This document shows positions 13,086 through 30,030 of a stretch of DNA of 30,030 bases, in pieces. Below the pieces are notes generated by a model. It did no database searches. It was not told the origin of the DNA and saw nothing but the letters and a program-made list of their open reading frames with translations. This DNA is from a virus. Taxonomy: Duplodnaviria > Heunggongvirae > Uroviricota > Caudoviricetes. Location: IMG/VR virus record IMGVR_UViG_2778261231_000012; one strand, written 5' to 3'. The translations under genes and the position numbers were made by a program. The stretch's first letter is position 1. The number at the start of each line of letters is the position of its first letter.

Positions 13086-13115
13086 TCCGCATTTCTACAA
13101 CCATCATCATTCATA

Positions 13116-13139
13116 AAAGCCGCTTGCGCGGCTTTTTTT
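13116..13139 (+). terminator. intercistronic hairpin with U-tract between D and E (terminator-like)
   Basis: aaagccgc-ttgc-gcggcttt stem followed by TTTTTTT. Confidence 0.5.
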
Positions 13140-27376: not shown

Positions 27377-27392
27377 ATTGCCTGGAGAAAAT

Positions 27393-28226
27393 ATGCTTTA
27401 TAACACCGGCACCATCGCCATTAATGGAAATACCGCCACCGGGACGGGTACAAACTGGACGGCACCGGCCAGCCAGGTCCGCGCTGGCCAGACGATTATC
27501 GTGATGTCTAACCCGGTGCAGCTGTTTCATATTTCATCCGTGAACAGCGCCACGTCAATGACGGTTACGCCTGCCGCTTCCCCGGCGCTGAGCGGCCAGA
27601 AATACGCCATTCTGGTGTCAGACATTATCTCCGTGGACGGACTGGCCCAGGCAATGTCGCAGCTCATCAAAGAGTATGACGAGAACATTGGCGCGTGGGA
27701 GACGTTCGCCACTACCTCAGCAAACCAGACCATCACCGTTACCATCAACGGGACCACCGTAACCATCCCTGGCATCGGTAAACTGGCACAGAAAGGGAGC
27801 AACGGTGCGGTTACTGTCGCAGACGGCGGAACCGGCGCAACGAATGCCGCAGACGCTCGCACAAACCTTGGTTTGGGAACAGCGGCGCAGCGAAATGTGG
27901 GAACGGGTGCAAATCAGATCCCAGATATGAATTCATTCACATCTCAAAAGTCATTGACCGGATGGCAAAAATTGCCTGGTGGATTGATTTTACAGTGGGG
28001 GCTGACAACAACCTCTGGGTCAGAGCAAAACGCACTGGTAACATTTCCTGTGGCATTTCCGGGATCAATACTGATGGAATATACGACATATGCAAACATC
28101 TCCGGCGACCCAGCAACCGGATCAACATACATTGGCCAGGTCAGAACAACGAGTAATACACAAATGTATGTTCGCAATCTTGGGCCGACTAATGCTCAAT
28201 ATAACTGGCTAGTAATCGGATATTAA
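27393..28226 (+). CDS. side tail fibre protein (constant N-terminal part plus currently expressed variable C-terminal cassette Sv)
   Basis: ATG 27393 with GGAG SD; N-terminus [19 protein letters not shown] and motif [21 protein letters not shown] typical of phage tail fibres; gix-like crossover site lies inside the gene at 27856-27881. Confidence 0.85.
27856..27881. repeat. left crossover site of the invertible segment (gix/hix-like, 12+2+12 bp)
   Basis: ctcgcacAAACC-TT-GGTTTgggaaca; inner half is a perfect inverted copy of 29397-29408. Confidence 0.7.
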
Positions 28227-28236
28227 GGGAGGGGGT

Positions 28237-28641
28237 ATGTATTACGCTAAATCTACAGGTGGATTTTATACGCCTGAAATTAACGGAAAAAATATTCCTG
28301 ATGATGCTATTGAAATCACGGAAGATGAATACTTGGGATTATTGCAGGCTCAGGCTGACGGGAAAATAATTACCTCAGATGATAAGGGGAATCCGGTTGC
28401 AATCGATCCGCCGCCATTGACGCAAGAAGAACTTGTTGCGCAGGCTGAACGCGAAAAGGCTTCTTTGTTAAAGCAAGCAACGAATTCGATTGCGCCGTTA
28501 CAGGATGCTTCCGACCTTGGTATTGCGACAGATGAAGAAATTAAACAGCTTACTGACTGGAAAAAATATCGGGTGCAGCTGATGCGTGTTGATACATCAA
28601 AAGCACCCGCTTTCGAGTGGCCTACATCTCCGGCTGATTAG
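28237..28641 (+). CDS. tail fibre assembly protein (Tfa)
   Basis: 134 aa; GGGAGGGGG SD; C-terminus [23 protein letters not shown] matches the recalled Tfa family signature. Confidence 0.85.
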
Positions 28642-29056
28642 GCCAAGTAATATCCGGGGCCGCTGAAGTATCGACGGCTTCAATATTATCCAGGTAATCC
28701 AGCCACGCGTTATATCTCGCTTTATCCGTGTCTTTTAAGCGGCCCATAGCCGCTTTCCCTGGCCACTGATTGCTGTTTATGTAGTCGTTTGCAGCATCAG
28801 TTAGGCTCTGCTTTTCAACCTCCGCTTGCGCCACAATTTCTTCATGGGTCGGAGGGGGAATGTCTTCCCATTCAGGTAGTCCATTTGTTCCAGCTACTCT
28901 TTTTTTCCCTTCGGGAGGCTCTCCCGTAAATTCGCTGTATAACTGTTCTGTTACCTCAACTGCATCCTCTGGCCAACCGATGCCATTGATATAATCATCT
29001 TTAAGCTCAAGCGGGAAAAAGCTGTTGTGTTTAGCGCTATAAAAATATGTGTTCAC
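28622..29056 (-). CDS. alternative tail fibre assembly protein (Tfa')
   Basis: Minus-strand ORF with C-terminus [24 protein letters not shown]; likely GTG start at 29056 ([14 protein letters not shown], parallel to the + strand Tfa start [11 protein letters not shown]) preceded by GGGAG SD; track start 29119 is an extension. Confidence 0.7.
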
Positions 29057-29057
29057 G

Positions 29058-29405
29058 TTAGCTCCCAATAGCAAAAAAGTATGCATTGAAACCGCCCGCA
29101 CCGGACATGTACGCCCCAAATCCTGCGCCGTTAACGGTGTTATTCACCACTGCCAGAGTTGGCGATGGGGTTCCACCTGAAAAGTTAATATCAGCAAATG
29201 TAAGCTGAATATTGCTCACCACACTGGGAAAATTGATAGGGAATGGAACTGAAATCTGTGTTTGCCCCACAGGAAAACCCGCTTTTCCCCACTGTAAGAT
29301 TTTCCCACCTGGCAATTTTTGCCACCCACTAGCGTTGGTAAAGCTGGACATATCAGGTATCTGTCCGGCACCGGCTCCTACGTTCTTCGTTGCTGCTGTT
29401 CCCAA
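29058..29405 (-). CDS. alternative tail-fibre C-terminal cassette (Sv'), silent in this orientation
   Basis: Minus-strand ORF whose N-terminal part ([39 protein letters not shown]) is paralogous to the + strand fibre segment after the crossover site; no own start; in-frame fusion to the fibre N-terminal part would result from inversion. Confidence 0.7.
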   Translation of the reverse strand: MGTAATKNVGAGAGQIPDMSSFTNASGWQKLPGGKILQWGKAGFPVGQTQISVPFPINFPSVVSNIQLTFADINFSGGTPSPTLAVVNNTVNGAGFGAYMSGAGGFNAYFFAIGS

Positions 29406-29422
29406 ACCAACCTTTCAAATAT
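29397..29422. repeat. right crossover site of the invertible segment
   Basis: tgttcccAAACC-AA-CCTTTcaaatat; inner half identical (inverted) to the left site; about 60 bp upstream of the invertase gene. Confidence 0.7.
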
Positions 29423-29449
29423 TTTTCTGAATCAGGTGATATTTCGCCT

Positions 29450-29476
29450 CTTCTCCTGTTTTTACAACAGGAGAAG
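29450..29476 (+). promoter_or_regulatory. perfect 11-bp hairpin sequestering the invertase Shine-Dalgarno
   Basis: cttctcctgtt-tttac-aacaggagaag; 3' arm contains AGGAG located 8 nt upstream of the invertase ATG. Confidence 0.45.
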
Positions 29477-29481
29477 CACTC

Positions 29482-30030
29482 ATGATTTACGGTTATGCCC
29501 GAGTATCAACAAACCACCAGGACACTGAATTGCAACTAACGGCGCTCAAGTCAGCGGGTTGTGAGAAAATTTTTGAAGAGCATGCCAGCGGGAGGAAATC
29601 GAATCGGCCGGTTCTAAAACGGCTGATCGCCACTATGCAGCCGGGGGATGAACTGGTGGTCTGGAAGCTGGACAGGATAGGCCGCAACGTTCTGCATGCG
29701 CTGTTGATGTTCCAGCAGTTACAGGAAAAGGGTATCAACTTCCGCAGTATTACCGATGGCGTGGATCTCAAAACAGCCAGCGGCCGCTATAACTTTCGTA
29801 ACATCCTTTCCGCAGCACAATATGAATCTGATCTTAATAGCGAACGTACCTTAGCAGGGCTGGCCGTAGCCAGGGCAAAAGGGCGAGTTGGTGGTCGCAG
29901 GCCTAAGTTCACGGATGAGCAATGGCGGGAAATGGGGGAGCGGATGGCAACCGGTGAATCACGACAAAGCGTATCAAAAACGTATGGAGTAGGGCTCTCA
30001 ACTCTGTATAAAAAGTTTCCAGCTAGCTGA
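29482..30030 (+). CDS. site-specific DNA invertase, serine recombinase of the Hin/Gin/Pin/Cin family
   Basis: 182 aa; N-terminal catalytic motif YARVSTNHQD, VVWKLDRIGRN, C-terminal HTH ending GLSTLYKKFPAS as in recalled Hin/Pin sequences. Confidence 0.9.
   Translation: MIYGYARVSTNHQDTELQLTALKSAGCEKIFEEHASGRKSNRPVLKRLIATMQPGDELVVWKLDRIGRNVLHALLMFQQLQEKGINFRSITDGVDLKTASGRYNFRNILSAAQYESDLNSERTLAGLAVARAKGRVGGRRPKFTDEQWREMGERMATGESRQSVSKTYGVGLSTLYKKFPAS

Follow-up and report, generated by a model that had tools for sequence, protein, structure and literature searches.

The window (the whole 30,030-nt stretch of viral DNA analysed here) ends, as judged from its sequence, in the tail-fibre inversion module of a lambdoid phage. 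Its features, from the tail-fibre gene onwards, are:

27378-28226, + strand: tail-fibre gene with the expressed C-terminus (open reading frame)
27856..27881, + strand: left crossover site, CTCGCACAAACC TT GGTTTGGGAACA, within the tail-fibre gene (repeat comparison)
27870..29409, no strand assigned: invertible tail-fibre segment, carrying alternative fibre C-termini and assembly genes
28237-28641, + strand: tail-fibre assembly gene (open reading frame)
28622-29119 and 29058-29405, - strand: silent alternative fibre/assembly pair (open reading frames)
29397..29422, + strand: right crossover site, TGTTCCCAAACC AA CCTTTCAAATAT, an inverted repeat with 27856-27881
29482..30030, + strand: pinL-like DNA invertase gene, 182 aa (Pfam Resolvase 3.6e-39, HTH_7 1.5e-9)

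The two 26-bp crossover sites are in inverted orientation and have identical inner half-sites, GGTTTGGGAACA, around a 2-bp TT/AA core, and homology with relatives of the window starts exactly at the right-hand site. Gp53-like_C and Caudo_TAP domains are each present in two copies in the region of the invertible segment. The invertase gene, whose stop codon is the final triplet of the window, encodes by its sequence a small serine recombinase of the Hin/Gin/Cin/Pin (Din) family, with an N-terminal resolvase domain and a C-terminal helix-turn-helix. The protein matches the mEp237 invertase at 100% identity and Cin and Gin at about 52%, the range over Cin, Gin and P2-type invertases being 49-55%, and the two domains and this level of identity bear out the Hin/Gin-family assignment made in an earlier note on this DNA. 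At the nucleotide level, the invertase region from 29390 on is 96-99% identical to that of phi80 pinL (99% over 29390-29700), and the window leader was found in 157 of 5426 complete E. coli genomes. In the relatives, attP and int come after the invertase gene.

The leader between the right crossover site and the invertase start codon contains two potential RNA hairpins:

29435..29448, + strand: small upstream hairpin GGTGA-TATT-TCGCC, part of the RNAalifold consensus
29450..29460, + strand: 5' arm (anti-SD) of the main hairpin, CTTCTCCTGTT, non-coding (sequence reading, repeat finder and RNA fold)
29461..29465, + strand: loop of the main hairpin, TTTAC, 5 nt between the arms
29466..29476, + strand: 3' arm of the main hairpin, AACAGGAGAAG, with the Shine-Dalgarno (SD) sequence AGGAG at 29469-29473 (sequence, fold and repeat finder)

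The earlier note had described a perfect 11-bp stem that buries the invertase SD in its 3' arm, and both parts of this description held up. The repeat finder returned arms of 11 nt each, 100% complementary and 5 nt apart, and the minimum-energy structure of the RNA from 29440-29500 is the same 11-bp hairpin, at -17.4 kcal/mol (z = -4.4), with none of 200 shuffles folding as well. AGGAG ends 8 nt upstream of the invertase ATG at 29482, and the hairpin on its own is worth -14.9 kcal/mol, against -7.4 kcal/mol for the SD to anti-SD duplex. No known RNA family could be assigned to the hairpin; Rfam gave two chance-level matches (E = 4.6 and 8.9), far under the gathering scores.

Of all perfect stems of 11 bp or more that close a loop of 3-8 nt, the entire window has just this one, and dinucleotide-preserving shuffles of the window, searched with the same loop range, gave a mean of 0.055 such hairpins per shuffle, with 4.5% of shuffles containing any. 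Nor does it have the form of an intrinsic terminator, as the earlier note had also concluded, because the 8 nt past the stem read CACTCATG on the + strand and AGGCGAAA on the - strand, leaving it without a U-tract either way; a terminator scan of 28600-30030 called no terminator there on either strand. AT-rich leaders often have short hairpins, but a chance palindrome or a terminator of no regulatory role is scarcely credible here, given how rarely perfect stems of this length are expected in shuffled windows, the missing U-tract and terminator call, and the purifying selection on the 5' arm described below. Two shorter perfect local hairpins were seen elsewhere in the window: CGCATTTAAG-GGGA-CTTAAATGCG, with a 10-bp stem, and AAAAGCCGC-TTGC-GCGGCTTTT, with a 9-bp stem and the look of a bidirectional terminator (the sites listed for the two are 825-848 and 13115-13136).

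We expressed the occlusion of a start site as its opening cost, that is, the free energy required to unpair positions -16 to +3 when the RNA from -60 to +40 is folded. For the invertase this cost is 17.4 kcal/mol, which ranks first among the 62 annotated genes of the related complete phage mEp237 (median 7.3-7.4, SD 2.9, second highest 14.5 kcal/mol), so that the occlusion of the invertase SD, tested against the mEp237 gene set, is well above that of ordinary genes. In the window, the cost stays at 16.4-17.4 kcal/mol with 5' ends placed anywhere from -200 to -32, and it falls only on cutting away the 5' arm of the hairpin: in a 5'-end trimming series it dropped to 9.6 kcal/mol at 29454 and to 3.7 kcal/mol at 29461.

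Occlusion of this kind is shared, to a lesser degree, by other DNA invertases. Median opening energies in three phage lineages are 16.2 (the window lineage), 11.0 and 10.4 kcal/mol, as compared with 7.3 kcal/mol for phage control genes and 7.3 kcal/mol for 67 diverse, mostly unrelated small serine recombinases from a GTDB scan, used as a negative control (Mann-Whitney p = 3e-11, 2e-7 and 3e-6 for the three phage lineages, and 0.36 for the 67 serine recombinases; kinship inflates independence within each lineage). General SD occlusion was thus not found in the wider small serine recombinase family, as represented by these 67 GTDB members. The named systems gin (12.2), cin (10.8), pinE (9.1) and hin (9.0 kcal/mol) are all above the control median of 7.3, and occlusion in the other invertase lineages is only moderate, at 8-12 kcal/mol, which lies in the upper range of ordinary genes. 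The window hairpin is the extreme member of a family-wide tendency to occlude the invertase SD.

Conservation of the hairpin was followed in 80 IMG/VR loci encoding close relatives, from which 20 distinct leaders could be aligned. In these, nine of the 11 pairs of the stem are invariant; the outer pair is U:A in 17 and C:G in 3 of them, a compensatory change, and one leader alone (L017) breaks a stem pair, with a C.A mismatch. Only two of the 11 columns of the 5' arm vary, against 30 of the 40 other non-coding columns (Fisher p = 0.001, 20 leaders), and the same alignment shows variation in 14 of 15 columns of the upstream leader, 5 of 5 of the spacer, 2 of 5 of the loop and 7 of 7 third codon positions. 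The loop reads TTTAC, TTCAT, TTTAT or TTCAC among relatives that keep the stem. Because the arm columns are near-invariant while their flanks vary, the alignment indicates purifying selection on the non-coding 5' arm. At the same time, covariation in the window lineage is thin, amounting to one compensatory pair, probably from a single event, and since only that one pair exists, most of the evidence from this lineage is conservation. Constraint at the DNA level would yield the same pattern of conservation as RNA pairing. Directly 5' of the main hairpin, and overlapping the candidate -10 hexamer described below, the small helix at 29435-29448 (GGYGA-N4-TCGCC) has a variable loop and pairs in 98% of its cells, with one pair that is C:G in 13 sequences and U:G in 7.

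The 27-bp palindrome could accordingly act as DNA, either by binding a protein, such as the invertase or some other dimer at an operator, or as a bendable or cruciform-prone spacer that aids looping between crossover site and enhancer over ~100 bp. It does sit between the crossover site (centre ~29409.5) and a Fis-like site I (centre 29510), which would form a loop of ~100 bp; its outer hexamer TTCTCC also forms the outer end of the inner half-site found most often in the relatives, TTCTCCCAAACC; and paired changes, such as C:G to T:A, preserve the symmetry of a palindrome just as they preserve a stem. The GenBank record of phi80 (JX871397) marks both arms of what is the same element, upstream of pinL, merely as a repeat_region, 'IR3', with no function stated there. 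But the likeness to a crossover site ends after 6 nt, the core CCAAACC-AA-GGTTTGG is absent, the spacing is 25 rather than 26 bp, and the small upstream helix, too, has a pair that changes between C:G and U:G. As a pseudo-crossover site, the hairpin was rejected, its half-site similarity being limited to TTCTCC and the CCAAACC-AA core missing.

The leaders of other invertases also bear on this question. The hin, gin, cin and e14 pin leaders belong to the same family and occupy the same position, from crossover site to start codon, as that of the window, and SD-pairing arms recur among invertase leaders of differing sequence. In 42 distinct, aligned leaders of the Eeyore/mEpX1 type, TTCACC(TG) pairs with (G)GGTGAA, which is their SD, and the arms vary as GTCGCT/GGCGAC, TTCATC/GATGAA and AATCAC/GTGATT, so that this lineage has compensatory changes at three stem positions as well as U.G pairs workable in sense RNA only. 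Leaders of the e14/P2 type pair ATCTCC/GGGGGAT, ATCCCC/GGGGAT or TTCCTG/CAGGGA, and in the Salmonella hin leader, taken from the genome sequence, UUCUUCCUU...AAGGAGAA pair across the SD. Arms in these other lineages are 7-23 nt apart and contain U.G pairs and bulges that pair in sense RNA only, and the SD is always involved. All of these helices are weaker than the window stem, which is perfect, longer and, in comparison with the hin, gin, cin and pin leaders, 5-8 kcal/mol stronger. A role at the DNA level fits poorly with these lineages, which differ in loop length, bulges and G.U pairs and have SD pairing alone as the common element, and we consider it quite improbable for the hairpin.

Our preferred reading is that the hairpin is probably an RNA-level brake on translation of the invertase, which would keep the enzyme scarce, because its start is the most occluded of 62 mEp237 genes, its 5' arm is conserved and includes a compensatory pair, and SD-pairing arms recur in other invertase leaders. 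A translational brake was what the earlier note had suggested, and it remains the best-supported reading on these sequence and folding grounds; the brake may act on the gene's own mRNA, on read-through mRNA or on both. Any transcript spanning 29450-29476 would fold the local 11-bp stem-loop and leave the invertase SD double-stranded, so that initiation by the 30S subunit would be rare and very little invertase would be made. On the preferred reading it would act on read-through from the tail-fibre operon, silencing the translation of these abundant transcripts, and probably on the gene's own transcript too: if the weak predicted promoter described below is real, the own mRNA would begin at the base of the stem and include the hairpin, making the brake constitutive, and the 5'-terminal stem-loop may in addition stabilise the invertase mRNA. 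The pairing of the SD, its unusual strength, its conservation and its recurrence in other invertase leaders are direct observations; we infer that the hairpin lowers translation and thereby the frequency of inversion. Counting against this reading, a stem-loop worth -14.9 kcal/mol that covers a 5-nt SD should allow hardly any translation, which sits awkwardly with the need for some enzyme and hints at an opening mechanism that is as yet unrecognised.

Two ways in which the stem might be opened or its effect made conditional were looked for and rejected. For orientation-dependent control, we sought a purine-rich 'anti-anti-SD' in the invertible segment, which might capture the 5' arm when the segment lies one way round; there is no copy of AACAGGAGAAG with two or fewer mismatches in 27870-29409 on either strand. 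A conserved upstream open reading frame that opens the stem by its translation was likewise rejected, as the frame from the GTG at 29437, which crosses the hairpin, is not conserved. An in-frame upstream GTGATG is present in one variant group (for example, L002), and both the GTG frame and the GTGATG are absent in the variants reading GGCGATAC. In the L002-type leaders (variant B), the spacer is shorter by 1 nt, which brings an upstream ATG in GGTGATGCTT into frame with the invertase start codon; this ATG would permit a 15-codon N-terminal extension through the hairpin, and the other variants lack it.

Which transcripts carry the hairpin depends on where transcription starts, and one candidate promoter could be placed in the leader:

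29414..29443, + strand: candidate sigma-70 promoter, -35 TTCAAA at 29414-29419, 18-nt spacer, -10 GATATT at 29438-29443 (prediction only)

Its -35 hexamer overlaps the outer half of the right crossover site. In a crude position-weight scan, this promoter was the top match in the window, L040 and L045, and its equivalent came second or third in L002, L048 and L064; a stricter scan called no + strand promoter near the invertase. The start predicted from this weak consensus match, near 29450, is the first base of the stem, and therefore the invertase's own mRNA would carry the hairpin at its very 5' end. In most variants of the window lineage, a conserved -10-like hexamer (GATATT, GATACT, GATGCT or GACATT) lies 6 nt ahead of the stem. 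In the other lineages, the best -10-like hexamers, also weak consensus matches, adjoin or overlap the 5' arm itself, namely TAAAAT in hin (read by eye from its sequence), TGGCAT(C/G)AT in e14/P2/Mu-type leaders and TAACTT in Eeyore/mEpX1-type leaders, and the predicted start would therefore fall inside or just past the arm. The sequence TGGCAT(C/G)AT is invariant in 31 e14/P2/Mu-type leaders (L176-L255, L083 and L336; alignment A4), where no other non-coding motif is as well conserved; it looks like an extended -10 element, and in a subset it also matches the GG-N10-GC spacing of sigma-54 promoters.

This geometry, together with the collapse of the opening cost from 17 to 9.6 and then 3.7 kcal/mol as the 5' end of the window leader is moved to 29454 and 29461, raises the prospect of insulation against read-through only. 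Here, as in IS10/IS50, the gene's own promoter would fire inside or after the 5' arm and give an mRNA that lacks the anti-SD and is translated normally, while transcripts arriving from the tail-fibre operon or the invertible segment would be blocked. For the window we think this unlikely: in its lineage the predicted start at ~29450 keeps the hairpin, every promoter call involved is a weak consensus match, and the published start table for e14 pinE places its sense starts only at the distal positions -340 and -536, leaving the predicted proximal site without one (Kim et al. 2012, PMC3415461). An antisense start 59 nt inside e14 pinE, listed in that table too, outnumbers the sense starts in reads (PMC3415461). 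In the window, a leftward promoter-like site lies in the 5' coding region of the invertase (TTGATA, 16-nt spacer, AATCAT; 29509-29482, - strand), its -35 being the reverse of the conserved RVST codons, and antisense RNA over the invertase start site is possible.

A stem at the very 5' end of the transcript, as placed by the predicted start at ~29450, would also suit an mRNA-stability element, whether as the 5'-end stem-loop of the invertase mRNA or as a 3' barrier of the upstream late transcript, with the occlusion of the SD incidental. Stem-loops at the 5' terminus are known to stabilise E. coli mRNAs. But an element of this kind needs no SD in its stem, and it leaves unexplained why the SD is the paired partner in four lineages of differing sequence, which makes stability as the main function very improbable. 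A stabilising role is compatible with the translational brake and does not exclude it.

Read-through into the invertase gene is to be expected from the layout of the module. From 28600 up to the invertase gene, the terminator scan found no terminator-like site on the + strand, and transcripts of the late tail-fibre operon should therefore enter the gene. Late transcripts of lambdoid phages are antiterminated by Q; a terminator would not hold them back, whereas a block to translation is effective.

Sequestration of the SD is a textbook mechanism, and the hairpin is a further example of it, in front of a DNA invertase. The classic quantitative case is reportedly the MS2 coat-gene hairpin series of de Smit and van Duin. 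Both the MS2 coat hairpin and that of the window are local stem-loops holding the SD, for which the predicted loss of initiation scales with stability, and at -14.9 kcal/mol the window hairpin is far past the range where expression starts falling. Unlike the MS2 series, it is a natural element ahead of a site-specific recombinase gene, and it has no known opening factor. Closer in function is the 'fold-back inhibition' of the IS10/IS50 transposases, in which an upstream complement of the ribosome-binding site blocks translation of transcripts from outside, while the own transcript of IS10 starts inside the repeat and so escapes. As in the window, an enzyme that rearranges DNA and needs to be rare is preceded by an upstream arm complementary to its ribosome-binding site, but the predicted start in the window keeps the whole hairpin; an IS10-like geometry is predicted instead for the hin, e14/P2 and Eeyore/mEpX1 leaders. 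The mom gene of phage Mu has a translation-inhibition structure that is opened by a dedicated activator, Com. Mom resembles the window gene in being a phage gene with its start region locked in a hairpin, and it adjoins an invertase; unlike Mu, the window has no evident Com-like partner, and attP and int follow the invertase in its relatives.

DNA invertases set the rate of host-range or antigenic switching, and the enzyme must stay very scarce, which has mostly been ascribed to weak promoters and to autoregulation at the crossover site. If the translational brake is real, a conserved lock would add a post-transcriptional layer to this scarcity and would explain how the invertase can lie directly downstream of a highly transcribed late operon without the segment being flipped during lytic growth. 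Inversion rates would then be tunable by point mutations in an 11-nt non-coding arm, with a bearing on the annotation and engineering of invertase-based genetic switches. The literature searched contained no description of translational control of hin, gin, cin or pin (the older hin/gin/cin literature was outside its scope). We offer, as a tentative and rather doubtful generalisation, that enterobacterial DNA-invertase genes at large, including hin, gin, cin, pin and phage relatives, may hide their ribosome-binding site behind an upstream anti-SD arm, a design feature so far undescribed. With the -10 element next to this arm in most lineages, the own transcript would escape there while read-through from strongly transcribed tail-fibre or flagellin-side DNA would be silenced, as in IS10, and the window lineage would be a derived, much stronger variant that masks its own mRNA too. 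Were this so, one would expect in the window lineage either an extremely low switching rate or a factor that opens the hairpin.

The earlier note had also expected a Fis-dependent enhancer within the first ~150 bp of the invertase gene and had proposed a search for pairs of Fis sites; of the two positions concerned, only the proximal one has a recognisable Fis-like motif:

29503..29517, + strand: proximal Fis-like 15-mer GTATCAACAAACCAC, at the family's Fis site I position, homologous to GTGTCAACAATTGAC in Salmonella hin
29552..29566, + strand: position homologous to the distal Fis site, CAGCGGGTTGTGAGA, without G(-7) and C(+7)

Seven other invertases (cin, gin, pinE, P2-type, Eeyore, mEpX1-like and hin) have two 15-mers of the form G-N13-C, 48-49 bp apart, at coding nt 22-36 and 71-85 (25-39 and 74-88 in hin). 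The window retains the proximal, site-I-like 15-mer; at the distal position it has C...A in place of G...C, and the search of its invertase gene for an alternative Fis-like pair 47-49 bp apart returned none above the motif threshold. G(-7) at the distal position is absent in every member of the window lineage (the window and L002-L081), whose enhancer, to judge from these motifs, may be weakened or otherwise organised.

Comparisons among relatives also gave some indication of how the leader and the gene may have been reassorted. The leader and the first ~53 codons behave like an exchangeable module (29390-29642 compared with L055, L066-L081 and mEpX1): genes of the mEpX1 type share 99% identity over the 3' two-thirds of the invertase gene and differ in leader and N-terminus, and 16 loci carry the window leader at 100%, yet their gene is just 79% identical from codon 5 onward. 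In phi80 (L001) and mEp237 (L337), the invertase, the hairpin and a remnant of one crossover site are kept and the invertible segment is lost; all that remains of it is a fragment of a tail-collar pseudogene, a dinI/msgA gene lies upstream, and the invertase has no obvious substrate left there.
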